Origin: Eledone cirrhosa
Taxonomy: Eukaryota
NCBI GenBank assembly: GCA_964016885.1
Contig: OZ024743.1
Span: 331,018,001 to 331,082,000 of the forward strand
DNA length: 64,000 nucleotides
Direction: 5' to 3'
The notes under the pieces were generated by a model that did not search any database, was not told where the DNA came from, and saw nothing but the letters and a program-made list of their open reading frames with translations. This document shows, piece after piece, positions 5,395 to 46,920 of this stretch; the first letter of the stretch is position 1; every line of letters begins with the position of its first letter. The position numbers and the translations under genes were made by a program.

Positions 5395-6126
5395 ACCATC
5401 ATCATCTTCACCACCATTATCATTTAACTTCAATTTTCCATGCTAGCATGGGTTAGACAGGTTCTTCCATTTGAGGCAAGTCGGCTCAGGTGACCATGTC
5501 TTGCACATACAGAACTGTTTCTGGCTCAGTTTCTATGGCTGGTTGCCCTTCCGAATGCCAACCACATTTACAGTGTGTACTGAGTGCTTTTTGTCATGAC
5601 ACCTACACAAACACATTTACAGTGTGTACTGAGTGCTTTTTGTCATGACACCTACACAAACACATTTACAGTGTGTACTGGGTGCTTTTTGTCATGACAC
5701 CGACACAACCACATTTACAGTGTGTACTGGGTGCTTTTTGTCATGACACCTACACAACCACATTTACAGTGTGTACTGGGTGCTTTTTGTCATGACACCT
5801 ACACAACCACATTTACAGTGTGTACTGGGTGCTTTTTGTAGTGACACCTACACAACCACATTTACAGTGTGTACTGGGTGCTTTTTGTCATGACACCTAC
5901 ACAACCACATTTACAGTGTGTACTGGGTGCTTTTTGTCATGACACCTACACAACCACATTTACAGTGTGTACTGGGTGCTTTTTGTCATGACACCTACAC
6001 AACCACATTTACAGTGTGTACTGGGTGCTTTTTGTAGTGACACCTACATGACCATTTTACAGTGTGGGCTGGGAGCTTTTTCTTGTGTCACATACATGAC
6101 CACTTTACTGTGTGGACTGGGTGCTT
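5395..6126 (-). repeat. SINE/RTE tail followed by a 49-bp minisatellite (~11-12 copies, 5563-6126)
   Basis: Unit cacatttacagtgtgtactgggtgctttttgtcatgacacctacacaac, period 49 (5563 to 5612). It is preceded by the reverse complement of the RTE-type 3' end. Confidence 0.9.
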
Positions 6127-7685
6127 TAACACTAAATAAAATTGGTAATGATTAAGGTCTTTTGTGTGATTTCAACTAATCTGACCTGTGATATGCTTGC
6201 CATCAACCTTTTCTCCTAAAACAGAATGGGGGGAGAGGGGCAAGGTGAGGAAGAATATACTGCTCTTTCTAGCACACAGGTACCTTTGTCTATAATCTAC
6301 AATATAATAAGAGATGCGGCTGCCTGTCTTATATATAGAGAGGAAAATATTACTCTACCTCTCACTAATTCCACCTCCCCCTCTCTCTAACTAATTAAAA
6401 CATAATGTGTGTGTTTCCTTATATCCAACAATGCAACTTAAAAAAAAAGACTTTTACTATAATGACAGGTGAGTATTGTTGTTATTCTGACTCACTCACC
6501 AATGACTGCTTCCCCCAGCTCCGAAACGGGGGGGGGGGGGACCCTCAGAGCTACAGATAAGCAGTTTCCAGTTTTTTTTAATTTATAGAAAAGTATTTGC
6601 TGGGGATTGGGAAGACATTTTTTTTTCCTAGGTTTTTTTCTAATCTGATCACCGACATCCTTGCAATCACCTTTTTTCCCCAAAAGGGAATGGCCAAGGA
6701 GGGGGGGGGGGGGCTATAAAGAATGTGTACATCAACAATGGTTCCGATGCTGCCATGTTTGTGCTACAAAAGTGAAATATGTCCAACAAGGTGTCCAACT
6801 CCTAACATGGCCGATATATACACAGTAGAGAGGGGTTGACCCTCTGATGTTCTTAGCCTCGGAAATTTCTTCAGTGCAAACCTTTTTCTTTTCTAGGCGT
6901 TTTCATTTGTTTTCAACTAATCTGACATCCAACTCACTCACCAACAACTCCTTTTTTCTGAAAACAGAGGTGGGGAGTAAGGGAGACCCTCGAAGCTACA
7001 AATAGGCACCTCTCAGCTGTATAGATTTATTGAAAAGCACCTGCTGGGAATTGCAAAAGAAAGTTTTCATGCGTTTTCAACTAATCTGATCTTTGACAAG
7101 CTCACAGTCACCTTTTTTTTCTGAAAATGGAATGCTATCAACAAAATTATCTCACAAATGGTCTTCATATAAGCTCCAAAGAAATAAGTTAAAAGCATTG
7201 TATATACCTAAATTCTGTAAATGTTTTATAAATTTCATAGAACACATTTTTCTGTTACTTTCTTTATTACATTCTGTATTTAGATATTCTAAATAAACTT
7301 TTAAAATTATGTTATGTGATATTTAAATACCTTTTAACATCTTTTATTTTAAGGAAAATGGATATTATGATAGATGCCAATAAGTGCCTTATGAATAGAT
7401 TTGAGCACAGTAAAGACCAGGATGACGGCCAGTTTTGTGTGTATATATACTTCGTTTTTGTATTAAGACAGAACAAAGGATTGACACAAAATAATAAATT
7501 AGTCACTGTGGAGGTCACACAATGTGCGATGAAAGAGCTTTGACAATAAACAAATAAACAACCATCTGATTATTAAACTAACCAACTGGAAATTTATAAT
7601 AAATTGAAGTGAAATCCAACAGGAGCGTGTGTTTTTATTGGCAGCATGACCCTCCCAAAGTGTAACAATATATATATGTATATAT

Positions 7686-9140: not shown

Positions 9141-9571
9141 ATAAACAGTCTTATAAATAGATAGATTTGACATACCTTACAACTTCAACTTCCATTTAAA
9201 AAGTTGATTTGGTAGTGAAAAATGTTAGGGACAGTTATAAAAAGAAAGAAAGAAAAAAAAAGAAAAAAAAAAGCGAAGAAAAAGAAGAAATGCATGCAAC
9301 TAAATAGAGATAGATAGATATAGAGAGATAGATAGAGAGAAGAAATTCATGTAAAGAAACAGAGAGAGATAGATAGAGAGAGAAAAAACACAGAGGGAGA
9401 TAGATAGAGAGAGAGAGAGAGAAGAGAGAGAGAGAAAAAATAGAGAGAGATAGATAGAGATAGAGATAGAGAGAAAGAAAATAGGTAGTTGGGCACCAGT
9501 TGAATGACGTATCAATGATATATTTATTTATTTATTTATTTAGTTCTAGTATTAAGGTAGAGAGAGATATA

Positions 9572-11389
9572 CTGAAAGAACTGAGGAAAAAGTACAAGGT
9601 AGCAGATAAGGCCGAGCTTGAGAAAATGAATGTTGAGGCATCTTGTATAATGCATGAGTTGGAAATTGAGAACAGAACACAACCTTTCGTGCCCAGGAAA
9701 CCGAAGATCAATATGAAAGATCACAAAAGAAATTTTGAAAATGACCTGCCAGTCAGATTGATTGCACCATCAAAATCTGACCTGGGTAAACTAAGCAAAA
9801 ACATTCTAGACAGGGTGATACAGCAAATTAAAAACTTGAATTGTTTACCTAACTTGAGCTTGTGGAAGGGAACTGGAGAGGTTATTGAGTGGTTTAAAGA
9901 AATTAAATATAACAATAATAATAAATTTATTCAACTAGATATTGCTAACTATTATTCATCTATTACCCCTAATCTACTAAATAAGGCACTAAATTACGCA
10001 TTCAAACATACAGACCTAACTAGCAATGAAATGCACATTATATTATCGGCTAGGAAAACATTGATAGAATTTAATGACCAACTATGGACCAGAGCAGATA
10101 GAGATAACAATTTCGACATTACTATGGGATCATCCGACTCAGCTCAGGTAACTGACCTTGTGGGCCTATTTATAATCAATTCGCTGCATAGGAAAATACC
10201 CGGTGCTACCGGAGGTTTATATAGAGATGACATGCTTTTACTTATTGAAAATAATAACTCTGAACTAAATAGAAAAAGAAAACAAATTACACAATTTTTT
10301 AATTACTTTAATCTAAAAATAGAAATTGAGAATAACCATAGAATAGTCAATTTCCTAGATGTAACATTAAATCTCAACACATGTCTTCACTATCCATTTC
10401 ACAAGTTGAATGAAAACTTAAACTATGTCAGTTTTAACTCTAACCACCCCAGATCTGTTAAAAATACTATAGTGAACTCTGTTCAAAAACGTATCTCTAG
10501 AATCTCATCTAATAAAAAGATTTTCGACGAAAAAGCCCAGTATTACAATGAAGCGTTAGCTAGAGCAGGATATAGTGATAAAATTATGTACATAGATAAT
10601 AATAGACAAACTAACCAAAATAACAACAATTTTAATTACGGCAACAACTTTAACAACTATAATAGAAAGCATTACAATAATTCCAAAAGCCAAAAAAGAA
10701 ATACAACTAGGAATATAATATAGTTTGCCCCCCCTTTCTCACTAAACATTAAAACCCACATCGCTAAACTATTTTTTAATGCTCTTGATAATCGCTTCCC
10801 TAGAACACATAGGTATCACTCAATTTTCAATAGACATACTATAAAATTAACTTACTCATCCACCAAAAATTTAGCACAAAATATTAATAGAATAAATAAT
10901 CGGAATTTAAAACCTAGCCAAAATACCGATAATAGCATAAATAATATCCAAGTAAACAAATGTAACTGTAGAGATAGATCTAAATGTCCGTTAAATAACA
11001 ATTGCTTAGTTAAAAATATAATATACAACTGTAATGTTAAAACGGACTTAAATTCTTTTAACTATGTTGGTTCCACCTCGACAGAATTTAAACTTCGCTA
11101 TAATAACCACAAGAATTCTTTCACAGATCCAAGCAAAAAATCTTCAACATCACTATCAGGCTTACTCTGGCAACTTAAGCATGATAACGTTGGATATTCG
11201 ACGGCTTGGAATATAGTCTCAAGAGGGATTCCTTTTAATTCATCCTCTGAGACATGTGACCTCTGCGCGGAGGAGATATTCTTTATACTAAAATCTAAAA
11301 ATTCCCTTAATTTACGGACAAATTTATTCAGTTGCTGCAGACATAGATTGAACTCAACTTTTAAATATAAATATAAATTTAAAATGTAG
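9572..11389 (+). pseudogene. Penelope-like RT-GIY-YIG ORF, 5'-truncated, one premature stop at 10721-10723
   Basis: RT motifs FIQLDIANYYSSI, FDITMGSSDSAQVTDLVG, GLYRDDM and VNFLDVTL. Reading through the TAG (NII*FAPPFS, expected W) continues in frame to CNCRDRSKCPLNNNCL...IIYNC...YVGST...FKLRYNNH...CDLC...CRH and a stop at 11389. Confidence 0.92.
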
Positions 11390-14142: not shown

Positions 14143-15868
14143 GAAGGTGAGTAATATTGTAGAACAATAAAACTATGCAGATATCAGATAAGTCGCACTC
14201 AACAGTTGAGTTATTAATAATATCCCTAAATTATTTTTTAGGGCATTACATAACAGCTTCCCTCCTTCACATATATATAGCAAGCTTTTCAAAAGGCATA
14301 CTATTAAATTCTCGTATTCTACTACTTCGAACATTTCTAAAATTATCTCAAGACATAATTCTAAAATATTAAATAATAACTCATATGCATCCAACCATGA
14401 GAGTCATAATAATAATAACACTATAAGGCCTGACGTCAATGTAAACTCTAGGCAAAATAACACAAGTATAAATACGAAGTCAAACATAATTTTGAGGAAT
14501 GCATCAAATACTAATGTAAATCTGGAAACTTTAGCACCTCCTTTAGTTAATTCCACCACTCCAGTTCCTAATATAATTAATCCTGGGCCACTTGCAAATA
14601 ACTCTGTAAATAATCTTAATCGTAAATGCAACTGCCCTATTAGAACTAATTGTCCTCTTAGTAATTTCTGTCTCGATAAAAACCTAGTATGCGAATGTGA
14701 AGTGGTAACTAGTACCAACACATATACCTACATTGGCTCTACTTCTACCTACTTTAAAGCAAGACTCTATAATCATTCTTCTACATTTAAATCTCTACTT
14801 AAAAGGACCAGCGCCGCACTCTCAGAACTTATTTGGTCCTTAAAAGACAAAAACATAAATTACAAAATTTCTTGGCGTAAAATCTACAACGCATCTCCAT
14901 ACTCCAATGCTTCCATATCTAGTGTTTGTAATTTATGTCTAGTTGAAAAATTTACCATTATCTCGAATTTCAACACAATAATAAATCGAAGAACCGATTT
15001 ATTTGGACTTTGTAATCATAAATCCTACAAGACCTTTCACAAAGTATATAGCTGATGTCCTATAACATATTTCACGAGTCATGGTTATCTTTACACATCT
15101 TTCATTATATTCTACAATGTATTAATTTGGTTTTCCCATCATATTTTAAGCCTTTGATCTTTTTTTCTATAGCCTTAGATTTTTGCTCAAACCTTCGTAG
15201 ATTTTCTAAACAAATTATGACGTCATATGTTTTTCTACGTTTATAAATCTTTCTAGCAATTTCCTTTATTTACTTGTTGATATAAAATAAAAATTAAATA
15301 GTATACCACACATATATAGATTTTACTAGAAATTATTAATTTTGACATAGATAGACTATTTTTTATATTTATTTTATTTTATTTTATTAATACATTTTTA
15401 CACTTCTTATTCTAATTTTTAGTATTTAAACCCAATATAAAATAATATACCCAGTTTCTATATTTAGGCCTCTAATATTTGAATACCATCTATAATATTC
15501 GCACATACACCTCATCAATTTACTTTTCAACCGTTATTTACAGCTGTTTTCATTTTGACAGCGTTCCTGATCAAAAGTCTCTCTCTCTCCCTTTTTTCTT
15601 CTTTTTTTCCTTTCTTTTCTTCTCTTTCTTTTTCCTTTTTCTCATTTTCTTTCCTTTCTTCTATTTTCCTATCTATTTCTTACTATAGTTTTAACACTTA
15701 TATTTCTGTCATATGTAGACTTAGCACTTTCCTGTAAACAAGTGCTATTATGCCTCATATCATGTTACCTTATTTTATCTGATGAGAACACAATTTCTGC
15801 CCCAGGATGATTTTGTATTTGAAATGCGCATAATAAAATATATGGAACTCTTTTAATTTCTTCTTTAT
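14140..15868 (+). mobile_element. Second Naiad-type Penelope-like element, 3' portion
   Basis: Open frame ~14210-15055 reads IPKLFFRALHNSFPP...KRHTIKFSYS...CNCPIRTNCPLSNFCL...YIGSTSTYFKARLYNH...CNLC...CNH (linker plus GIY-YIG). The AT-rich 3' UTR carries a hammerhead and the element is flanked by (TA)n. Confidence 0.9.
15771..15840 (+). ncRNA. Type I hammerhead ribozyme
   Basis: tattttat-CTGATGA-gaacacaa...ttgtattt-GAAA-tgcgca-TA-ataaaata, with a perfect 8-bp stem I and palindromic stem III ATGCGCAT. Confidence 0.88.
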
Positions 15869-15944
15869 TATATATATATATATATATATAGGCATACGTC
15901 AAGACGGCCGGTCTCAAAAGTGAAACTAATTTTTTACCGTTACG

Positions 15945-17325
15945 TACGCTATATTCTTAGTTAGTTTACCTGTGATCTCACTACATCTTTTATGTACCCA
16001 TACTTTGCATTTGGGACATAAAATGGAGTTTCTACCTACTCCTTTCCTACACACTGAGCATGGCCATTTCCCAGATGGGACCGGTGCCCTATTTTCCTTC
16101 CTACAAACTAGAACTTTAGTCTTAGACAAGTTAACTTTAAGGCCTTTTGATTCTAGGCCATGCTTCCATGTTTGGAATTTCTTCTCTAGTTCAGCCATTG
16201 ATTCAGCTATTAGCGTTAGATCATCTGCATATAGGAGTTCCCATGGGCAGCCGGTCTTGAACTCCTCTGTTATAGCCTGAAGGGCAATAATAAATAGTAG
16301 GGGGCTAAGGATGGAGCCCTGATGAACACCAACTTTTACGCTAAACTCTTCACTATATTCGTTGTTAATTCTAACCTTGCTGACTGTTTCTTTATACATG
16401 ACTTGTATAGCTCTCACAGGCCATTCATCAACACCTAGTTTTCTAAGGGCCCACCAGATAATCGAGCGGGGTACTCTGTCAAAGGCTTTCTCCAAGTCAA
16501 CAAAAGCTAAGTATAGGGGTTTACTTTTAGCTAGGTACTTCTCCTGTAGTTGTCGTACAATGAAAAGAGCGTCTGTTGTACTTTTACATGACACAAACCC
16601 GACCTGCATTTCGTCTAGATCAATTCGCTCTCTGATTAGTTGCGCTATTACTTTTTCTGTGACCTTCATGACCTGGTCAATTAATTTAATGCCTCTATAG
16701 TTTCCCCTATCTAGGGCATCACCTTTACCCTTGTAGCAGTTAACGATGATGCTGCTGCGCCAGTCCTTCGGAACGACCCCATTCTGTATGACTTGGTTTA
16801 CTATCCGGGTGACCATAGTGTATCCCACCGTTCCAGATGCTTTCAGCATTTCAGCAACTATTTCCAAAGGCCCGGCCGCCTTGCCCGTCTTCATATCTTT
16901 GATCGCCTTACTTATTATACTACCTTCAACTTGCACTGCTGGTCCCTCTATTGGGTCGATGTGGGGGAGACTGTCTTTCTCCCAATTATTCTCCTCATTT
17001 AGTAGCCTTTCGTAGTGACACTTCCAAGCTACCTTCTTATCAGCGTCAGTGATGGCAAGCAAGTACACCATCATCATTTAGGACACACTTCTCCCCGACA
17101 ATATCACTGTTTTCCTTGACACATTGCCTAGCAATCCTGAACACCTCACGTTTTTGGTCCTCACGTTGTAGAACATGCTTGAACTTTCTTTCCTCTGCTT
17201 CCCTTCTTGCGAAGTACACTTGTCTCCTAGCTTCCCTCCTGGCCACTTGATAGTCTTCTCTACTTCCCCCATCCCGCCATGCTTTCCAAGCCTGCTTTTT
17301 GGCCTTGATTGACCTCTCCATAATT
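15945..17325 (-). mobile_element. RTE-clade LINE internal fragment (RT plus PHD-like finger)
   Basis: ORF 15926-17077 contains NYRGIKL, FVDLEKAFDRV, GVHQGSILSP, YADD and then CSVC...CPKC..WVHKRC. An upstream frameshifted part lies at 17046-17325. Confidence 0.93.
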
Positions 17326-17720
17326 GAAATTCCAGTAGGAAAGCTAAAGCAAGATGTTGAAGCAAGGATTGCATATAACTTCATAAGATACATATGTCTA
17401 AAAAAAAAAGGCAGTAAAAATAAACCAATACTACTCTTGATGATGACGCCATGAGAGTCTGGAAACACTGGTAAAATTATAGACTTAGGAATTTTATTTT
17501 TCTAACCACTGTGGGGGACTTAGAAAATAGAAGCTTTTCATAAAGGAATTGAAACTGGAAAATAGCCATGTTTTTAACAACATATATGTAATAGAAACAA
17601 CTGTTCCACATAGATGTGAATATTTCATGTGTGTGTGTATCTCTATATATGTGTGTGTGTGTATATATATATATATATAATAGGTGGTTCAGTAGAATAC
17701 ACACACACATCATATATACA

Positions 17721-18159: not shown

Positions 18160-19316
18160 GTTGGTAGTGGTGGTTGTAGTGGTAGTGGTGGTTGTAGTGC
18201 TGGTTGTAGTGGTAGTGGTGGTTGTAGTGGTGGTTGAGTGGTAGTGGTGGATGTAGTGGTGATTGAGTGGTAGTGGTGGTTGTAGTGGTGGTTGTAATGG
18301 TAGTGGTGGTTGTAGTGGTAGTGGTGGTTGTAGTGGTGGTTGTAGTGGTGGTTGAGTGGTAGTGGTGGTTGTAGTGGTGGTTGAGTGATAGTGGTGGTTT
18401 TAGTGGTGGTTGTAGTGGTGGTTGAGTGGTAGTGGTGGTTTTAGTGGTGGTTGAGTGGTAGTGGTGGATGGAGTGGTGGTTGAGTGGTAGTGGTGGTTGT
18501 AGTGGTGGTTGTAATGGTAGTGGTGGTTGTAGTGCTAGTGGTGGTTGTAGTGGTAGTGGTGGTTGTAGTGCTTGTAGTGGTAGTGGTGGTTGTAGTGGTA
18601 GTGGTGGTTGTAGTGGTTGGTGGTTGTAGTGGTAGTGGTAGTGGTAGTGGTTGTAGTAATGGTGGTTGTAGTGGTTGTGTTGGTTGTAGTGGTAGTTGTG
18701 GTGGTAGTGGTGGTAGTGGTGATTGTAGTGGTAGTGGTGGTTGTAGTGGTGGTTGTAGTGGTGGTTGTAGTGGTAGTGGTGATGGTTGTAGTGGTAGTTG
18801 TGGTTGTAGTGGTAGTGGTGGTTGTAGTGGTAGTGGTAGTGGTAGTGGTGGTTGTAGTGATAGTGGTGGTTGTAGTGGTGGTTGTAGTTGTAGCGGTGGT
18901 CGTAGTGGTAGTGATGGTTGTAGTGGTAGTGGTGGTGGTAGTGGTGGCTGTAGTGATGGTAGTGGTGGTTGTAGTGGTAGTAATAGTGGTAGTGATGGTT
19001 GTAGTGGTGGTTGTAGTGGTAGTGGAGGTTGTGATGGTTGTAGTGGTTGTAGTAGTGATGGTATTAGTAGTGTTAGTGGTAGTGATGGTAGTGTTAGTGT
19101 TGTAGTGATAGTGGTGTGGGTTAAGTAATAGTTGTTATTGTTGCGATGTTGGTCTAGTAGTAGTAGTAGTAGTGATAGTATTGATAGTAGTAGTAGTGGT
19201 AGTGTTGATAGTAGATAGTAGTAGTATTAGTAGTGGTAGTAGTAGTAGTAGTAGTAGTAGTAGTATTGATAGTAGTAGTAGTAGCGGTGATGGTGGTGGT
19301 GGTAGTAGTAGTAGTC
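18160..19316. repeat. (GTA)/(GTG)/(GTT) low-complexity tract
   Basis: Direct inspection; explains the poly-Val and Gly/Ser ORFs. Confidence 0.9.
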
Positions 19317-19392
19317 GTTTTCTTACAGTGGTACTGGAAAGTGTGACAGACCATGAAATTAATACTCCATGTTAACAAGAGTTGGGTTCCTC

Positions 19393-22005
19393 TCATAACT
19401 TAGAAGAGATGTAAGATCTGTCAGAACTATATCATAACTTAGAAGAGATGTAAGATCTGTCAGAACTATATCATAACTTAGAAGTGATGTAAGATCTGTC
19501 AGAACAATATCATAACTTAGAAGAGATGTAAGATCTGTCAGAACTATATCATAACTTAGAAGTGATGTAAGATCTGTCAGAACTATATCATAACTTAGAA
19601 GTGATGTAATATCTGTCAGAACTATATCATAACTTAGAAGTGATGTAAGATCTGTCAGAACTATATCATAACTTAGAAGTGATGTAAGATCTGTCAGAAC
19701 AATATCATAACTTAGAAGTGATGTAAGATCTGTCAGAACAATATCATAACTTAGAAGTGATGTAAGATCTGTCAGAACTATATCATAACTTAGAAGTGAT
19801 GTAAGATCTGTCAGAACTATATCATAACTTAGAAGTGATGTAAGATCTGTCAGAACTATATCATAACTTAGAAGTGATGTAAGATCTGTCAGAACTATAT
19901 CATAACTTAGAAGTGATGTAAGATCTGTCAGAACTATATCATAACTCAGAAGTGATGTAAGATCTGTCAGAACTATATCATAACTTAGAAGAGATGTAAG
20001 ATCTGTCAGAACAATATCATAACTTAGAAGTGATGTAAGATCTGTCAGAACTATATCATAACTTAGAAGAGATGTAAGATCTGTCAGAACAATATCATAA
20101 CTTAGAAGTGATGTAAGATCTGTCAGAACTATATCATAACTTAGAAGTGATGTAAGATCTGTCAGAACTATATCATAACTTAGAAGTGATGTAAGATCTG
20201 TCAGAACAATATCATAACTTAGAAGTGATGTAAGATCTGTCAGAACTATATCATAACTTAGAAGTGATGTAAGATCTGTCAGAACAATATCATAACTTAG
20301 AAGAGATGTAAGATCTGTCAGAACTATATCATAACTTAGAAGTGATGTAAGATCTGTCAGAACTATATCATAACTTAGAAGTGATGTAAGATCTGTCAGA
20401 ACAATATCATAACTTAGAAGTGATGTAAGATCTGTCAGAACTATATCATAACTTAGAAGTGATGTAAGATCTGTCAGAACAATATCATAACTTAGAAGTG
20501 ATGTAAGATCTGTCAGAACTATATCATAACTTAGAAGTGATGTAAGATCTGCTAGAAATATATCATAACTTAGAAGTGATATATGGATCCATTAGGGATA
20601 TGTCATAACTTAGTAATGATACATGATCTGCTAGAAATATACCATAAATTAGTAGCGATGCCTGGATCGATTAGACATATGTCATAAGTTATGACATATG
20701 ACTATAACTTAGTAATGATATATGGATCCATGAAAGATATGTCATAACTTAGTAATGAAGTAGGTTCCCTTAGAGGTATGTCATAAATTATGATGTATGA
20801 TTTAGTAAAGACATGTCATAATATACCAATAGTGTATGATCCAATAGTGATATGACAATTTACAATTGAAGAATGATTTAGTAAAGACTAGCAGAATGGC
20901 CCGGCGTTAATCGGGATTCTGAACATAGATTGGCATGTTTATCCCTCCTTTCTGAAACAGTACAGAGAAGTACGGAATACCTCGGTCGGGGGATGGTGTC
21001 TACATTTTGTGCTTATAAAAAAATTTGTCGTAGATTGCCAGGGGTTTAACTTAATTGGGTGCCTGAGAGTAAAATGTTCAACCCACGAAAGCCAAGACCA
21101 TAGGGTTAAGTAAAAAGGCATTCGACAAACCGAACATGTATTTGTTGTGCTATGGTAGAATGAAAGCAATAGTTACAGAGCAGTAAGCATGTGGGACTGC
21201 AGTGATGGAGAGCATGAAGGAATTTAGTTGGATACTTTTAAGACCCTAACACAACCAAAATACTAAACAATGCGGTCTCCAGGCAAAAATTTGAAATCTT
21301 TTTCAGTCAAGAAAATTTGTGAAACATAAGTAATGCATATGCAAAGTTTAAAAAAAATTGGTTGGGTACTTCTCGAGTTACAGGCCCTAACGCAACCAAA
21401 ATGCTTTAAAAAATCATTTTTTGCCTAATGTGGTACCTGGGGCAAAAAATGAGAAAATCTTTCTTGCTCAAAACACTTTAAACTACATAAGTAATGCTAA
21501 TTTTGAAGAATCGCCTGGATTATTGTTCCGTTATACCTCAAAAAAGCCTTTACAGCCTAAAATATGCAGTTTTTCACCTAATGCGGTCCCTAGGGCATTG
21601 AAAATTTGAAATATTTTTTGCTCAAAACACTCACATGACCAGAAGTATTACATGTGTAAATTTTGAAAAAAATCGGTTGGGTGGTTCTTGAGTTTTAGGG
21701 GACAGACAGACATTCTCTGTTTTCGATATATAGATATGTCATAACATGCCAATGACGTATGATCCAGTAGAGATATATCATAAGTTACTCATAATGTATG
21801 ATCTGCAAAATATGTCATAACTTACCAGTATGTATGATCCAGTAGAGATATATCATAAGTTACTCATAATGTATGATCAGCAAAATATATGTCATAACTT
21901 ACCAGTATGTATGATCCAGTAGAGATATATCATAAGTTACTCATAATGTATGATCAGCAAAATATATGTCATAACTTACCAATGATGTATGATCCAGTAG
22001 AGATA
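19393..22005. repeat. 39-bp minisatellite: ~30 homogeneous copies (19393-20580), then diverged copies running into the host exon and interrupted by a Helitron
   Basis: Unit tcataacttagaagtgatgtaagatctgtcagaactata, period 39 (19393 to 19432). Confidence 0.95.
20888..21734 (-). mobile_element. Non-autonomous Helitron
   Basis: Minus strand starts TCTATATATC...tgtctgtctgtc and ends with hairpin cccg-attaacgc-cggg then CTAG. It is inserted between A and T without a TSD. Removing it restores the satellite unit gatttagtaaaga|tatgtcataac. Confidence 0.88.
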
Positions 22006-22057
22006 TGCCTTCTTCCTGAACAGCAATCCAAAACTGGTTTTGGTCCCTGCCTTTAAA
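21980..22057 (-). CDS. PLEKHH: Exon of PLEKHH1/2 (MAX-1)-like gene, FERM C-lobe start
   Basis: Acceptor ttgttttacAG, 78-nt phase-0 exon, donor GTAAGT. It translates FKGRDQNQFWIAVQEEGISLLDHTSL, matching PLEKHH WLAVxEDGxSLLE. Confidence 0.9.
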
Positions 22058-22179
22058 CTGTAAAACAATAACATAACACACATTGGAGTTACTAAGCATC
22101 ATCAAAACAAACCAGTAACATATTATCTATAAAATAACTATTAATTTATCTTGAAATTCTAATAAGAACCATCATAATT

Positions 22180-22580
22180 AATGGTTTCTGATTTAGGCAC
22201 AAGGCCAACAATTTGCTTTGAGGAGAAAGTTAATTAAATCTATCCCAGTATACTACAGGTACTTTATTTTATTGACCCCGTAAGGATGAACGGCAAAGCC
22301 AACCTCAGTGGGATTTGAACTAAATACTGCCAAGTATTTTGCCCGACTCTAACGATTCTGTCAATCTACCACCCCAAGAACCATCATAATTAATAATTAT
22401 TTCTACTTTTGGCACAAGGCCAGCAATTATTCCAGTACATTACTGGTACTTTATTTTATTGACCCCGTAACGATCAAAGGCAAAGTTAACCTCAGCGGGA
22501 TTTGAACTCAGATCATAAAGGGACGTAATTCTAAGCTGAAAAAGCATGTTGTCTGACGCTCTACTGATACTGCCAATAAT
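22180..22580 (-). mobile_element. Two tandem tRNA-derived SINEs with a Nin/Deu-like core
   Basis: Reverse complements contain the B-box gagttcaaatccc, the core gcctttcatccttacggggtc.ataaaataaagtaccag and the tail ggccttgtgcc. Confidence 0.75.
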
Positions 22581-22679
22581 GATTAGATTCACTACCCACT
22601 GCATTCCATATTAAATTTTGCTTCACTAAAATTTCACAATTGTCTCCCCTCCCTTTTTTTGGACTAGATATGATCATTT

Positions 22680-22942
22680 AGAGTCTTAACATAAGTGTCA
22701 CTGAGTCTCATAAGATCCAGTGTCACTGAGTCACTTAAGACTAAGGGTCACTGAGTCTCATAAGATCCAGTGTTACTGAGTTTCATAAGACTTGAGTCAC
22801 TGAGTCTCGTAAGACCCAGTGTATCAGATATCTGACTCATTTAAAATCCAGTATATCTGAGTCCCTTAAGATCAAGTGTCACTGAGTCACCTAAGAACCA
22901 GTGTCCCTGAGTTTCCTAAGACTCAGTATAACTGAGTCACTC
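22680..22942. repeat. ~25-bp degenerate tandem repeat
   Basis: About 10 units resembling agtgtcactgagtctcataagatcc. Confidence 0.8.
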
Positions 22943-23151
22943 TTGGATGCCATTAATAAAGTCCATTCTGCTGGAAGTATTCAGACCAAGCCTGCAGTAT
23001 GGGGATAACTTTCGCTTTTCCTCTCACTAATCTTGAAAACCCTCAATAAATGTTATGGGCACTGCTCTTCTTCTCCTCACTACCATCTAATTACTATCTT
23101 ATAGGTAATTTAACACACTTAAGATTGTTGTGAAACCTGTTTCTAGCTTAA

Positions 23152-23356
23152 CCCTTTAGTATTTACATTACTCTATATTTACTTTGGTATTTTCGTGGTA
23201 AAGGCTTTATCTCATATAATATCGAATCTATGAGATTTTGATATTTATTTTGAGAACAATACCTCAACATCAGTATGATTGGCCAGTTACAGCCAGTTTG
23301 AACAGAAAGAGGTGAGAGAGTTCTGGCTAGATACAGTTGGTTTCAATGCTAAAGGG
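23152..23356. mobile_element. piggyBac-type MITE
   Basis: TTAA|CCCTTTAG ... CTAAAGGG|TTAA. Related copies lie at 61608-61812 and, partially, 50035-50185. Confidence 0.8.
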
Positions 23357-23616
23357 TTAAGGCTCATGTGCACTACATGTATGTGTGTAAGATGATTTAA
23401 CAGAATGTCCTGTTTATTGTATCTTTACTAATGGATAGATTGTTGTGAAAATTTGTAGTATTAAAGTAAAGATATACATTTTTAATGTGATGTAGTTTTG
23501 TACTTTTCAAGAATAGATTGCTAATGTGGTTTCATGGAGGACAAGATGATAATAAATTTTTTAAATGTAAGAGAAATTTCTTTTACTAATTTTCTTATAT
23601 CCTTATATGGGCAGTC

Positions 23617-23830
23617 AATTGGCAGTATGGGTAGATCGTCGAACACCATGCTTTGCAGCATAGAGTTACAGCCCTTTACATTCTAAGATCAAATCCCGCC
23701 GAGGTCAGTTTTGCCTGTCATCCTTACAGGGTCGATAAAATAAAGTACCAGTAAGTACTGGGGTCGATTTACTTGGCTTTCCCTTCCCCTTCAAATTGCT
23801 GGCCTTGTGCCTAAAGTAGAAACAATTATT
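23617..23830 (+). mobile_element. tRNA-derived SINE (Nin-like core)
   Basis: A/B-box-like head, core cctgtcatccttacagggtcgataaaataaagtacc, tail ggccttgtgcctaaagtagaaacaattatt. Confidence 0.78.
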
Positions 23831-23880
23831 ATGCATATACATGTTAGAAATATGTTGGCTCCATAGAAATGCTATTTTAT

Positions 23881-24072
23881 AATAATTGTTTCTACTTTTG
23901 GCACAAGGCCAGCAATTACCCCAGTACATTACTGGTGCTTTATTTTATCGACCCCGTAAGGATGAAAGGCAAAGTTAACCTTGGCGGGATTTGAACTCAG
24001 AATGTAAGAGGCCATAACTCTATGCTGCAAAGCATGGTGTCCGACCCTCTACCAATAATGCCAATCCACCGC
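23881..24072 (-). mobile_element. tRNA-derived SINE (Nin-like core), inverted relative to its neighbour
   Basis: Same family as 48082-48267, reverse strand; flanked by gctatttt(t)ataataat repeats. Confidence 0.8.
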
Positions 24073-24091
24073 TATTTTTATAATAATATTA

Positions 24092-24346
<255 letters not shown>

Positions 24347-24454
24347 TCAATAATCCAGCTGAAAATCATTGGCAGTATTTAATTTGTTTATTAATCAAGT
24401 TATTTATTTACAAAGAAATCATCACCATCAATGTCAGGCTGTTAAGAGTCATTT

Positions 24455-24770
24455 AGGCATGTGACTTAGTGGTTAGTGTGTTTAGCTCCTCATCATAAGA
24501 CCATGATTTGACTACCTGCAGCACATTGTATCCTTGAGCAAGATACTTTATTTCACATGGCTCCAATCCACTTAGCTGGAAAATATTAGTTCAATCTGTA
24601 ATTCAAAGAGATAACCTTGTCATACTGTGTCATGCTGAATCTCCCTGAGAATTATGTTAACAATGCATATATGAGTAGAATAATGAACCACTTTCATGTT
24701 AATTTCATAGGCAGGCTGTTCCATTGTTGAAACAACTGAAATACTTGTCATTGGAACTGATAGAGGTCTA
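24455..24770 (+). mobile_element. tRNA-derived SINE with Meta-type core
   Basis: Head gtgacttagtggttag and core gtatccttgagcaagatactttatttcaca. Confidence 0.65.
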
Positions 24771-33721: not shown

Positions 33722-34350
33722 GCACCATTTTACAGTGTGGACTAGGCACTTGTTGTAAATGACACCTACACAACCACTTTACAGTGTAGACTGGGTGCTT
33801 TTTATCATAACAACTACCATGAACATTTTACAGTCTGTACTGGGTGCTTTTTGTCATAACACCTACACAACCACTTTAAAGTGTGGACTGGGTGCTTTTT
33901 GTCATAACACCTACACAACCACTTTACAGTCTGTACTGGGTGCTTTTTATCATAACACCTACACAACCATTTTACAGTCTGTACTGGGTGCTTTTTGTCA
34001 TAACACCTACACGACCACTTTACAGTGTGGACTGGGTGCTTTTTGTCATAACACCTACATGACCACTTTACAGTGTAGACTGGGTAGTTTTAGTTATGAG
34101 ACCTATACAACCATTTTACAGTGTGGACTGGGTGCTTTTTTATCATGAGACCTACACGACCATTTTACAGTGTGGACTGGGTGCCTTTTTTATCATGAGA
34201 CCTATATGAGCATTTTACAGTGTGGACTGGGTGCTTTTTTATCATGAGACCTATACGACCATTTTACAGTGTGAACTGGCTGCTTTTTTATCATGAGACC
34301 TACACGACCACTTTACACTGTTGACTGGGTAGTTTTTATCCTGACACCTA
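33722..34350. repeat. 48/49-bp minisatellite, same family as the 5563 and 40845 arrays
   Basis: Units of ccactttacagtgtggactgggtgctttttgtcataacacctacacaa. Confidence 0.88.
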
Positions 34351-40839: not shown

Positions 40840-42042
40840 CCTTACAGTTTGGGCTGGGTGCTTTTTGCAGTGACACCTACATGACCACTTTACAGAGAGG
40901 GCTGGGTGCTTTTTGTTGTGACACCTACATAACCACTTTACAGAGAGGGCTGGGTGCTTTTTGTTGTGACACCTACATGACCACTTTACAGAGAGGGCTG
41001 GGTGCTTTTTGTTGTGACACCTACACGACCACTTTACAGTGTGGGCTGGGTGCTTTTTGTTGTGACACCTACACGACCACTTTACAGTGTGGGCTGGGTG
41101 CTTTTTGTTGTGACACCTACATAACCACTTTACAGAGAGGGCTGGGTGCTTTTTGTTGTGACACCTACATAACCACTTTACAGAGAGGGCTGGGTGCTTT
41201 TTGTTGTGACACCTACACGACCACTTTACAGTGTGGGCTGGGTGCTTTTTGCAGTGACACCTACATGACCACTTTACAGAGAGGGCTGGGTGCTTTTTGT
41301 TGTGACACCTACATAACCACTTTACAGAGAGGGCTGGGTGCTTTTTGTTGTGACACCTACACGACCACTTTACAGTGTGGGCTGGGTGCTTTTTGTTGTG
41401 ACACCTACATAACCACTTTACAGAGAGGGCTGGGCGCTTTTTGTTGTGACACCTACACGACCACTTTACAGTGTGGGCTGGGTGCTTTTTGTTGTGACAC
41501 CTACACGACCACTTTACAGTGTGGGCTGGGTGCTTTTTGTCGTGACACCTACATAACCACTTTACAGTGTGGGCTGGGTGCTTTTTGTTGTGACACCTAC
41601 ATAACCACTTTACAGAGAGGGCTGGGTGCTTTGTGTTGTGACACCTACACGACCACTTTACAGTGTGGGCTGGGTGCTTTTTGTTGTGACACCTACACGA
41701 CCACTTTACAGTGTGGGCTGGGTGCTTTTTGTTGTGACACCTACACGACCACTTTACAGATAGGGCTGGGTGCTTTTTGTTGTGACACCTACACGACCAT
41801 TTTACAGTGTGGGCTGGGTGCTTTTTGTTGTGACACCTACACGACCACTTTACAGTGTGGGCTGGGTGCTTTTTGTCGTAACACATACATAACCACTTTA
41901 CAGTGTGGGCTGGGTGCTTTTTGTTGTGACACCTACATAACCACTTTACAGTGTGGGTTGGGTGCTTTTTGTTGTGACACCTACATAACCACTTTACAGT
42001 GTGGGTTAGGGTGCTTTTTGTCATGATGCCTACATGACCACT
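40840..42042. repeat. 48-bp minisatellite (~25 copies)
   Basis: Unit gggctgggtgctttttgttgtgacacctacataaccactttacagaga, period 48; gives 16-aa repeat ORFs on both strands. Confidence 0.95.
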
Positions 42043-42138: not shown

Positions 42139-42883
42139 TATATACAGCATATATATATGATTTCCTCCGAATGAATCAGTTCTAGTCCTGTAGAAGCCAT
42201 TTCTATATTAAATATTTATACTCTGCTATGTATTGAGTACCTTACTGTCGTTACCTCCAATTGAACCCGGGATACACTCACACACATATATATATATATA
42301 TACACATATATATATATATAATTTATTATTTAAAAGCCTGTGGTGCTGGTAAGCCATGACAGTATAGGAAATGTATCCGATGCTCTTTATATTTAAGACA
42401 TAACAAGAGAGAGACAATAAAATAGAAAACCGGTAAAATAATGACTGCTATAGAACATACTATATAACAATGCTATATAATATGCTATATAATGACTGCT
42501 ATAGAACATCTTACGTACATTGGTAAAATATTTCTGAACATTGACTTCGCTTCTAACCCACATACACCTTTTAATTATATATATATACTAGCAGCTGAAA
42601 GTTAATAATTTGAAAAATATTATTGAAAGTTTATTATAAAGAAGCAGTATCAGGAAAAAAAGTTATTTCGCTGTTAATAAACAGTTGCCTTCTACAGTAC
42701 GTTTCATTTAACTTACGCAGCATATTTATTTGTATACATGCACAGACTCTTCTGTACACACACAACATGTAGGAAAACGGAAACAAAATGCACAAAAAAA
42801 CAAAACAAAAAAACAGACATTTTATTTCTATCGTAATCAAGTGCGCTAAACCTATATTGTTTGCATTCTGTGTTTTTCTATGG

Positions 42884-44104
42884 ATGGGCAGAAATAACAA
42901 AATTGCCATGGTGATATCCATCGATGAAGTATGCGACAAAACTGGTCGATGTTCCAAAATAGAACATTGCCCAGAAGATCACATCTGCCATATCTGTACG
43001 GAACCCGAAAACTCGTTCCGTAATCGTTGGGTCGAATGTGGAACCTGTCACATCTCTGTCTGCCTTCAATGCGCCACAGGCTTCCGGAAGATCCCAGGCC
43101 AAAACAAGAAACATCATATTGCTACGATGGATAGACTCTGGGAGATGGTCCAGCTAACAAACTGGTCCTTTCAGTGCCTGGACTGTATGCCTGCTTCTCC
43201 CATTGCTGCGGAACAACAACAAAGACCGAAGATCGTGTCTTCTACCATTGTTCCCAAACAACAACAACAAAAACCGAGGATCATGTCTTCCTCTACCATT
43301 GCTCCTGAACAACAGCAAAAACCAACGACCGTAGCTTCTGCTACTACCCCCATTGAAGGACTTCATCAACAACAGCAACCCATGTCTTCCTCACCCGTTA
43401 CTTTTCAACAACAACAACCGACGACTGTGTCTTCTACCATGCCAGTTGAAGGAGAAGAACAACAACAAAAACCGACCGTCAATACGGAGTTTGAGGAAAT
43501 ACTGCAAATGATTTCCGCTTTAAGCCAAGAAATAGCGGAAATAAAATCAAGCGTTCATGTAGAACCCCACTCTTACCGGAGTGCCTTGTTAAAAAATCTT
43601 CGCGTACCTCATGTTGAACCTAGACGCATTGAGAATGCCACTGAATCTGCAAACCATGAAGTGATTGCCATTGGTGTACCAGAAGACATAGTTGATCTTC
43701 AGGCATTTGCTGCCAGTTCATCCAAAGACCTGGGCTGTGCTCCCGCAAAGGGTGCGCTACGCCTTGGCCGACCAGGCCCGAAACCCAGGTTAATTAGACT
43801 GTCGTTTTCAAACTCAACTGAGGCACGTTCATACCTTGTAGCCTCTGATAAAGCTAGGCGTGAAAGTCGGATTGCTTTCCGAACACGCCCTGGTCTTCCA
43901 CCTGATGTCCGCCCAAAGTTGCGTGCTGCAGCTTCCTTAAACCGCAGCTCGGCAGAACATGAAAGCTTCAGCCTACGAGATGATGGGCAGATATGGAAGT
44001 TTGTTAAGGCTGGCGAATCATGGAAAAGAGACACCAGCTGGTCTGAAAACACTGTACCCACAACAACTGACAATAAAGAAACTGAAAAAACTCTGGGAAA
44101 CTAA
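42884..44104 (+). CDS. LINE ORF1p (PHD finger, Q/T-rich linker, coiled coil, RRM-like domain)
   Basis: CHIC...WVECGTC...C..C...FQCLDC, EFEEILQMISALSQEIAEIK, VIAIGVPE and RLGRPGPKPRLIRLSF. The start is ATG 42884 or 42908. Confidence 0.85.
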   Translation: MGRNNKIAMVISIDEVCDKTGRCSKIEHCPEDHICHICTEPENSFRNRWVECGTCHISVCLQCATGFRKIPGQNKKHHIATMDRLWEMVQLTNWSFQCLDCMPASPIAAEQQQRPKIVSSTIVPKQQQQKPRIMSSSTIAPEQQQKPTTVASATTPIEGLHQQQQPMSSSPVTFQQQQPTTVSSTMPVEGEEQQQKPTVNTEFEEILQMISALSQEIAEIKSSVHVEPHSYRSALLKNLRVPHVEPRRIENATESANHEVIAIGVPEDIVDLQAFAASSSKDLGCAPAKGALRLGRPGPKPRLIRLSFSNSTEARSYLVASDKARRESRIAFRTRPGLPPDVRPKLRAAASLNRSSAEHESFSLRDDGQIWKFVKAGESWKRDTSWSENTVPTTTDNKETEKTLGN

Positions 44105-46920
44105 ATCAGAACAACCTGCCATCCCCTGCACATAATCATAGACTGGAATCAAGGTACAAATTGTTGTCCTTGAATGCACGTAGTCTATGCAATAAGATTC
44201 ATCTTTTTGACTTCTACGTCAAAAGTATCAACCCTGACTTCATTACAGTCATGGAAACTTGGGCACATCCCTTACTCTGTGATGGGGTTTTCAGCATGAC
44301 TGGCTACAACCTGTTTCGTAAAGACCGCATTAATCGTGGTGGTGGTGGTGTAATGGTCTACGTTCGGTCAAATCTGTCGGCAATTCCTTGTGCTGATTTG
44401 AACCAATCACAGCAGGAAATTTTTTTCTGCGATATACGTATGACCATGTCAACTCTGCTACTTGGAGTCCTTTACCGTCCCCCAAACTACCATCAGGACA
44501 CTCAACTTTGTGATATCCTCAGAGCTGCTGCCAGGAAGACAGCCACTTATGTTTTCATTGCAGGTGACTTCAATCACCCTGAAATTGACTGGGAAACCTT
44601 TCGTTGGCCGCCAAGTGCAAATGACTTCCTTGAGCTAGTGCTGGACTCGAGTTGGTCCCAGGTGGTCACCTCCCCAACGAGAGGTGACAACACTTTGGAC
44701 CTACTCTTCACCACTACTCCTGAAACGGTCATTAGTGTTACTGCTGAGGAACCTTTAGGTGACTCTGATCATGCTATGATCATTGCCAATCTATCCCTCA
44801 TGGGCAGTAACAAGAACCACAACCATCTCCAAACTGCTCACTTTGACTGGAATAAAGCAGACTGGAACTGTTACTGCACCGAGTTGCAACGGCCAAACTG
44901 GCTTGAGTTCTACGACTCTGGAGATGTCAACACTGTACTCCAGAACATTCTGAGCTCAATATGGACAGCATGTGCAGCATCGGTGCCACGTAAGCGGAAA
45001 AAACATCCCAAAAGCGCAATTTGGGAGACTGCAGCAGTCCATCTTGCCAGAAAAGAATGGCGCAATGCTGAACGTGAGTACAAACTTCACAAATCAGACA
45101 TTAATAGGAAGAGGCAAAATAGATCGTCCAACCACCTCAAACAGGTGACAAAAAAAGGCAGTGCTTCAATTTGAGAAGCGCATAGCAGCCAGCCCTGACA
45201 GTAAGGTGTTCTGGAAGTATGTTCACTCAAAGCAGAGGCCTCACTCTCCAGTTGGTCCTCTTCGCAATCCCCACACAAGCCAGGTTACTGACGACCCCAA
45301 GGAATGCGCAGAGCTCATTGCTGAATGCTATGCAGGCATTTTCACTATTGAAGACCAGAGTGTACCATCTCCACCACCTCTGACACCGGACTCTATTACA
45401 ACCATGGAATTTACACTTGCAATGCTGCGACGTCACCTAAAAAATAAACGCAACCATGCCTCTCCTGGTTTTGGTGGTGTTACGTACCTGCTTCTTAAAC
45501 GTGGTGGGTACTTCCTTCTACACCAGTTATCACGCTCCTTCCAATTCTGTCTGAACAACAGTGCTACTCCAGAACAGTGGAAAACTGCTAGTGTCATTCC
45601 TCTGTTCAAAAAGGGTGACCGCACATCACCTGTCAACTATCGTCCAGTCAGTCTAACTAGTTGCATCGCCAAACTGATGGAATCCTGTGTCAGAGAAACA
45701 CTTTGGAACTTCTGGAGCTCTCACAGTTTTATCCGGCCCTCGCAATTTGGATTTATCCCCAACTCCAGCTGCTGTGATCAACTTATAGAGTTTCTTGAGG
45801 ACATCACCCGGATCACTGATGGCGGCTCATGGGTGGATGTTATTTACCTTGACTTTGCGAAGGCCTTCAATTCTGTGCCACACAAAAGGCTTATGGCAAA
45901 CTCTCTGCAATGGGTGTGAAGGATGATCTTTTTAACTGGTTGAAGTCCTTCATTCTCAGTCGAAGAGAGGTAGTCACGGTTCTGGGACAGCATTCCTCAC
46001 CATATGAGATGTCATCTGGTGTACCACAGGGATCTGTTCTTGGCCCCCTTTTGTTTGTGGCATATATTAATGACATAGATGCCAACTTAAGGAATGCCAC
46101 AGTACTAAAGTACGCAGACGACATCAAGCTGTACCTTGAGATAAAAAGGACAGATCCTGAACACTATAGATCTTGCTTGCAGTCTGACCTGGACACAATG
46201 CAACAATGGATCTCAGACTGGCAACTCAAGCTAGCTGTGGACAAGTGCACCACCATGCATTTTGGGAGTAAAAACCCAGCGTCGACATACTCCCTCCACA
46301 GCACTAATATCAAGAAGTCTTCTTGTGAACGTGACCTGGGCATTACGGTCAGCAGCAATTTGCGTTGGAGGCACATCTCTAAAATTGTCAAGGGGGCCGA
46401 GGGTGTCTTAGCATCACTCAGCAAGACCTTTGTCAGCTGCTCTCCAGATATCTATTTAAGGCTGTATACAGCTATGGTGCGACCACACTTAGAATTTGCA
46501 TCACCAGTCTGGAACCCCTATCTTGCTCAGAACATTGACTGCCTGGAAACTGTTCAGAGACGTGCAACCAAGCGAATACCCTCCATCAGGCATCTACCAT
46601 ACTCTGAGCGCCTTGCTTCCCTGGGCATGGATTCATTGAAGCTCCGACGCCTGGCAACTGACTTGGTAAACATCCACAAAATTGTTAACCATGTTTCCAA
46701 CAACAACCCTGAGTACCTTTTTGATTTCCATGTGTCTAACACACGTGGACATGCCCACAAAGTAAGAAAACAGCACAGTTCCCATGACTTTCGGAAACAT
46801 TTTTTCACGCTCAGAGTTGCTGAAGCATGGAACAAACTACCTGCATCAGTTGTTAGCTGTCGAGACACTGCATCCTTTAAGGCCTCCATGCTTCCCGAGA
46901 TCCGCCAACATTACAGCTAA
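44095..46920 (+). CDS. LINE ORF2p (APE endonuclease plus reverse transcriptase), interrupted by two single-base indels
   Basis: LNARS, ETW, GDFN, LDL and SDH (APE); NYRPVSLTS, YLDFAKAF, GVPQGSVLGP and YADD (RT). Frame changes occur at A-runs 45150-45156 and 45898-45900, with no in-frame stops otherwise. Confidence 0.9.

Follow-up and report, generated by a model that had tools for sequence, protein, structure and literature searches.

A locus-specific minisatellite in Eledone cirrhosa whose first unit appears to be the end of a PLEKHH1 exon with its splice donor

Where did the 39-bp satellite come from that lies in an intron of Eledone cirrhosa, downstream of a short exon whose end it resembles? 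The DNA analysed here, referred to as 'the window', is a stretch of 64,000 nucleotides from contig OZ024743.1 (positions 331,018,001 to 331,082,000, forward strand), and the original prediction was that the satellite is an amplified exon/donor junction of the host gene. We put the probability of the following reading at roughly 0.8: the satellite belongs to a locus-specific minisatellite, the first unit of which is the end of an exon of PLEKHH1 together with its splice donor, and which likely grew by local tandem duplication and is likely neutral. Both the birthplace and the history of the array can be read at this locus—the exon of origin, the old and diverged copies, the transposon splitting the array, and two later re-amplifications.

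The host gene is an orthologue of PLEKHH1 (PLEKHH1/2, MAX-1; domain order PH-PH-MyTH4-FERM), as is evident from its collinear exons and from the Pfam list of proteins P0002 and P0003. Another protein, P0008 of Octopus sinensis, has 30 collinear matches on C4, between 330.99 and 331.93 Mb on the minus strand. The MyTH4 exons lie on the same strand about 136 kb upstream of the source exon, and match PLEKHH1 of Argonauta at 98% and that of O. sinensis at 97%. The source exon itself (21980..22057, minus strand) is 78 nt long and of phase 0-0, with an AG acceptor and a TTG|GTAAGT donor; it encodes part of the C-terminal region, after MyTH4, corresponding to residues 1299-1324 of P0008. Splicing at 21980, the absence of which would have told against a junction origin, is shown by one contig from run X4 (record 9; 4,524 nt). 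This contig fits 21980-22057 without mismatch, and beyond that stretch it carries the end of the previous exon on one side and the start of the following exon on the other. The kind of run and library is unrecorded, and we take X4 to be transcript-derived solely because its contig is spliced. The RNA basis is thus one contig from one run, and assembled contigs drop rare isoforms; within it, the first donor (21980) is the sole donor used. The next PLEKHH1 exon starts at C4:330993098, and the intron downstream of 21980 spans 46,881 bp. An Rfam search of 19300-24500 returned no RNA family match, and a PDB search with a 34-aa piece of the exon returned one weak, irrelevant match only.

How good is the likeness between exon end and satellite? 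The founder unit (21967..22005, minus strand) consists of the last 26 nt of the exon and the first 13 nt of the intron, and contains the used donor. Recounted without gaps, the junction 39-mer (22005-21967) and the commonest satellite unit agree at 28 of 39 positions, exactly as originally claimed; 17 of the 26 exonic positions match and 11 of the 13 intronic. Shuffled sequences do not reach this: with every rotation and either strand allowed and the best score kept, 20,000 shuffles gave a maximum of 26/39, and the same maximum was found among 104,176 genomic 39-mers from outside the array, with none in either control reaching 27. The junction is, furthermore, the most central of the 11 unit lineages, with a mean identity of 0.79 versus 0.65-0.76 for the others, as would be expected were it the conserved source.

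The unit is also confined to one place. When the genome was searched with the satellite and with the copies nearest the exon, the best candidates being scored, this locus alone came up, apart from one repeat on C2; an exact-pattern scan with a 29-nt core of the satellite gave 27 matches in the genome, all within the array. A dispersed family at unlinked loci, which would have spoken against the prediction, was therefore not found. The C2 locus (68-69%) was considered as a dispersed source and rejected; its repeat, with a period of 22/33, is made up of an 11-bp motif and is unrelated.

These results bear on the direction of events. A pre-existing repeat might instead have inserted at the exon end, or donated it, or the likeness might be coincidental, and the abundance of tandem repeats in this intron (35% of its length; TRF repeats cover 16,274 of the 46,881 bp) means that repeats adjoining exons are common. 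We regard this as scarcely credible, because the controls never reach 27/39, copies identical at 37 of 38 positions abut the exon, the searches gave no second locus beside the unrelated 11-bp-based repeat, and the exon peptide is kept in relatives. In protein comparison, the 26-aa peptide shows no difference from O. sinensis (P0003) or Argonauta (P0002), it is 77% identical in the protein of a more distant relative, and it is kept in P0002, P0003 and P0006. This conservation suggests that the exon is older than the repeat, and hence that the exon gave rise to the repeat rather than the other way round. The conserved exon, the splicing at 21980, the locus-specific unit and the central position of the junction together support the view that the array arose when the exon/donor junction was tandemly amplified.

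Junction and satellite are parts of a single array that an 847-bp Helitron-like element interrupts without shifting the register, a finding new to this account. The array has 46 units including the founder, and the 45 duplicates run head-to-tail and, if the insert is disregarded, in register. TRF reports its two sides separately, 19393-20660 as period 39 (32.5 copies, 95%) and 21734-22006 as period 77 (3.6 copies). Next to the exon, the proximal block (21737..21966, minus strand) comprises six duplicates arranged as an A/B dimer of 77 bp (94% matches by TRF). Gapped alignment gives its A units 35-37 identical positions of 39 to the junction, and its B units 27-28; A-type units differ from the true junction by one aligned base and a 1-nt gap. 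The A units at 21927 and 21850 retain CTG|GTAAGT, their donors (21903 and 21826) lying 77 and 154 nt downstream of the used one, the last A unit reads TTG|GCATGT, and the B units read TGA|GTAACT. Beyond the insert, the old diverged block (20561..20887, minus strand) holds what remains of the split unit, followed by eight more units, one of them partial. GT is present in the first two units of this block, deleted in two, and replaced by CT in five; its eight units have 26-33 positions identical to the junction, the partial one 18. The homogenised block (19391..20560, minus strand) contains 30 units of 39 bp with a mean pairwise difference of 3.0%, and C replaces the donor G in all of them. The change from G|GTAAGT to T|CTAAGT that had been reported for about 30 such copies is accurate: 29 of the 30 read T|CTAAGT and one reads T|CTGAGT.

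The smooth gradient that had been described, from the exon through diverged to homogenised copies, is absent. Moving outward from the exon, identity to the junction (gapped alignment) runs 39, 28, 37, 28, 35, 27, 36 and then 29, 33, 30, 31, 30, 18 (the partial unit), 26, 31, 32, 30, 28. With an A/B dimer in the proximal block, even the unit adjoining the exon differs from the junction as much as the satellite does. A tree of the 39-nt units has weak support, with unit d_20600 misaligned, and is too weak to date events. Read-through from the exon would end at a stop codon 38-40 nt inside the intron (21942-21940). Farther out, a 410-codon frame (19359-20591, minus strand) is open across the homogenised block, since 39 bp make up 13 codons of a junction that is itself open on read-through; a coding role for this block was rejected, as stops and the insert separate its frame from the exon.

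The gap in the array from 21734 to 20888, overlooked in the earlier reading, is a dispersed mobile element (20888..21734, minus strand; 847 bp). Helitrons begin with TC, end with CTRR preceded by a hairpin, insert between A and T, and produce no target-site duplication. The insert resembles them in every one of these features: it has TC at its 5' end and a hairpin and CTAG at its 3' end, and it lies between A and T without target duplication. We call it a non-autonomous Helitron-like element, a name given by its ends only. It splits one repeat unit after the second base, and the flanks rejoin in register to form a unit with 28/39 identity to the junction. Among 40 scored of 4,019 candidates in the genome, 39 are other near-full-length copies with 89-93% identity. 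The ends of 12 copies are consistent: nine begin with TC (seven of these after A, two after a preceding copy), 11 terminate in CTAG and one in GTAG, and T comes next in all 12, with no target duplication. The predicted 3' hairpin has an energy of -6.7 kcal/mol. Some copies of this family stand head to tail.

The same unit family is apparently common to a second organism, 'organism B', to judge from its contigs. One of these (run X5; 506 nt, depth 18.1) fits 21866-21737, and its further pieces, placed by equal depth and by piece ends, would correspond to about 20888-20741 and 20702-20601; the old block, 20561-20887, is matched by an organism B contig at 80% or more. No organism B contig was seen joining the units to the exon itself or covering the upstream part of the exon. 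Depth and piece ends suggest lengths that fit an insert-free site, and an insert-free array in organism B would mean that the array predates the split between the two organisms and that the insert is younger. Contigs of organism C (run X6) leave the repeat blocks uncovered, which counts neither for nor against this.

Is an arrangement of this kind new? The original prediction presented it as a route from coding DNA to satellite birth; the route is not a new one, since junction-spanning minisatellites are already described in human genes. In intron 7 (IVS7) of human F7, according to the portion of Borensztajn et al. (2006, PMC1557585) used here, a 37-bp VNTR has a first monomer that spans the exon 7 boundary; the downstream donor copies are functional yet unused, and a preference for the most upstream donor was shown in mammalian cells. 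The same portion lists 6-16, CBS IVS13, LAMIN B2 (100-bp unit) and PDGF intron 4 (81-bp unit), with 10-25 copies of a junction-spanning monomer, and records that in 6-16 and CBS the next two pseudo-donors are used too. The PLEKHH1 array shares the architecture of all these cases as far as that text describes them. Like F7, it has a boundary-spanning first monomer, a donor repeated in head-to-tail intronic copies, a similar unit size and a locus-specific unit; pseudo-donors occur in part of the array, with GT in 7/45 duplicates. The differences from F7 are also clear. The F7 monomer, in the same source, has 4 exonic and 33 intronic bp and occurs in 5-9 identical copies with all donors intact, whereas the PLEKHH1 unit has 26 exonic and 13 intronic bp, its 46 units are of several ages, most of their donors are lost, a mobile element lies inside, and the array is apparently common to a second organism. 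In contrast to what the source reports for 6-16 and CBS, no pseudo-donor use is seen in the single PLEKHH1 contig. A limited literature search on donor-born minisatellites and cephalopods yielded no paper about this locus or about junction repeats in cephalopods, which does not imply absence from print. The array shows that intronic minisatellites can arise from coding DNA in cephalopods, as they can in humans, and that this has happened more than once within one gene.

The loss of donors might be expected to reveal selection. In the strict form of the original prediction, only donor-dead variants amplified: duplicated donors would disturb splicing, and donor-less units alone would reach high copy number. 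The donor states of the 45 duplicates—35 CT, seven GT (two of them the full CTG|GTAAGT), two deletions and one GC—lend this idea some initial appeal, as CT replaces GT in most copies, including all 30 homogenised ones, and the largest and most distal block is donor-dead. Two other PLEKHH1 junctions point the same way. At the exon for residues 441-463, a locus-specific array with a 43-bp unit and about 63 copies (L242; G000:C4:331238614-331245800, in two blocks 4.4 kb apart, with the donor in the region of C4:331245784) has GTGAGT in 51/62 copies, and one G, at position -1, is lost in all 62 copies counted. The exon that precedes the source exon in the window (24188..24319, minus strand) likewise has its donor junction duplicated, as a decayed 52-bp tandem copy of 2.4 units (24099..24224, minus strand); its first two units are 36/52 identical, and in the copy the GT found at 24188 has become AT. 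Weaker donors in the copies at these two junctions are what mild selection would predict.

We nonetheless judge such a filter improbable, and 'only' cannot stand. Seven of the 45 duplicates retain GT, a point missed in the earlier reading. The 35 CT units form one contiguous distal run, so that a single mutation suffices to explain them, and under neutral divergence the probability that a unit differing at 11 of 39 positions has lost GT is 48%. Competition should be strongest close to the exon, yet the copies there have perfect donors and were themselves re-duplicated. GT-bearing donors have amplified in the 43-bp PLEKHH1 array as well, most of whose copies keep GTGAGT, and intact ones elsewhere: downstream of an ALDH exon on C18, an 82-bp array (L156/L240; G000:C18:34848900-34850550) carries 18 further exact copies of the donor sequence AGAG|GTAAGA, with 96% matches. 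In organism B, a collapsed 102-nt contig (X5, record 11) with a depth of 71.8, about four times single-copy, has the donor GT unaltered, and human F7 and the other genes carry from several to 25 intact pseudo-donors in the part of the literature cited above (PMC1557585). The change from G to C in the 30 near-identical copies is thus likely one inherited mutation and not the product of selection. Of the three arrays, one is dead, one weakened and one intact, and no rule follows from them; they do offer a ready test, in molluscs, of the upstream-donor rule known from F7.

Intact donors this close to an exon must somehow be tolerated, and the human precedent offers a plausible way. If splicing uses whichever donor lies farthest upstream in a series, as it does in F7, the copies would mostly be ignored; were a downstream copy used, the transcript would include the stop codon, and nonsense-mediated decay would likely remove it. 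With upstream donors preferred and mis-spliced transcripts degraded, selection on the copies would be weak. A functional role is conceivable on much the same grounds: the intact copies at +77 and +154 nt might act as decoys that send some of the mRNA to nonsense-mediated decay, or that bind U1 and so tune PLEKHH1 output. The near-identity of A-type units to the true junction, the stop that downstream donor use would include, the similar units of organism B, and the alternative use reported for 6-16 and CBS in the cited portion of PMC1557585 are all compatible with such a role. Recent re-duplication of the dimer explains the high identity equally well, however, and the first donor alone appears in the single transcript contig, so that we think decoys very unlikely.

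Growth of a probably neutral array from the exon/donor junction, the reading we prefer, would have proceeded as follows. Slippage or unequal exchange would first have duplicated 39 bp, placing a copy of the junction downstream and leaving the exon and its donor intact. The array would then have grown and diverged by 15-30%, and the donor G of one distal unit would have mutated to C, a change inherited by all later distal units. A Helitron-like element would next have inserted in the E. cirrhosa lineage. Finally, re-amplification would have occurred twice, once in a 77-bp dimer close to the exon and once in a single 39-bp variant at the opposite end of the array. The array demonstrates no new mechanism, no large effect on intron size, and no selection against extra donors.

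Its effect on intron size is real but small. Tandem amplification had been proposed to have expanded the intron, yet junction-derived DNA accounts for just 1,740 of its 46,881 bp, or 3.7%.

Are splice junctions, then, especially prone to tandem duplication? We looked for junction copies (gapped score of at least 30; cross-locus null, 0.07% of donors and 0.23% of acceptors) at 30 PLEKHH1 exons and at 174 family matches (70/72 myosin, 90/107 kinesin and 14/14 ALDH). Eleven of the 174 were excluded as long single-exon, near-duplicate or broken matches; the remaining 163 gave 156 callable donors and 131 callable acceptors, called by a simple score at approximate sites. Copies were found at 4/29 donors and 1/29 acceptors of PLEKHH1. 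In the other genes they were found at 5/156 donors, or about four without L150 (judged mis-called, in a CT-rich repeat), and at 1/131 acceptors (L141, probably mis-called). Random intronic anchors proved to be the first unit of a tandem copy in 65/1,453 cases in PLEKHH1 and 213/6,019 in the others, and high-complexity anchors in 11/324 and 22/1,300, respectively. Against this background the excess is not significant: PLEKHH1 donors, with the flagged case removed, stand at 3/28 versus 3.4% (P=0.068, borderline), other donors at 4/156 versus the high-complexity rate (P=0.27), and the comparison of donors with acceptors gives P=0.07-0.18. Junction copies are thus recurrent among the exons surveyed, but are not shown to be commoner than intronic tandem duplication in general.

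It is nevertheless possible, though doubtful, that splice donors are favoured minisatellite birthplaces in the octopod genome, and that growing arrays mildly favour copies whose donors are weakened. What invites the idea is that 4/29 donors of PLEKHH1 are echoed, that two arrays reached 46 and about 63 units, and that donors (7/184) may be affected more often than acceptors (1-2/160). Were the first part true, exon ends would steadily seed new intronic satellites; were both true, such arrays would amount to a natural experiment, genome-wide, on how 5' splice sites compete in an invertebrate.

Several minor cases came to light in the same survey. Another PLEKHH1 exon (L046; region of G000:C4:331218098) has a donor-junction repeat of 49 bp in 2.9 copies, and yet another (L029; region of C4:331177722) has a single upstream copy of its acceptor junction. 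Three myosin exons (L061, L070 and L084, on C6, C3 and C6) have short or decayed copies of apparent donor junctions, at approximate positions.

The window contains other repeats as well. A 48-49-bp tandem family of similar consensus occurs at five places (1833-2102, 2576-2675, 5559-6127, 33724-34350 and 40842-42042), unlike the junction repeats, which are locus-specific. A 25/50-bp minisatellite occupies 22685-22941, in the intron upstream of the source exon, and the sequences at 22175-22650 and 23125-23400 are very high-copy dispersed repeats common to organisms A, B and C. Long open frames in the PLEKHH1 introns, at 9485-11389, 14210-15055, 15926-17501 and 42773-46920, are probably the remnants of mobile elements.
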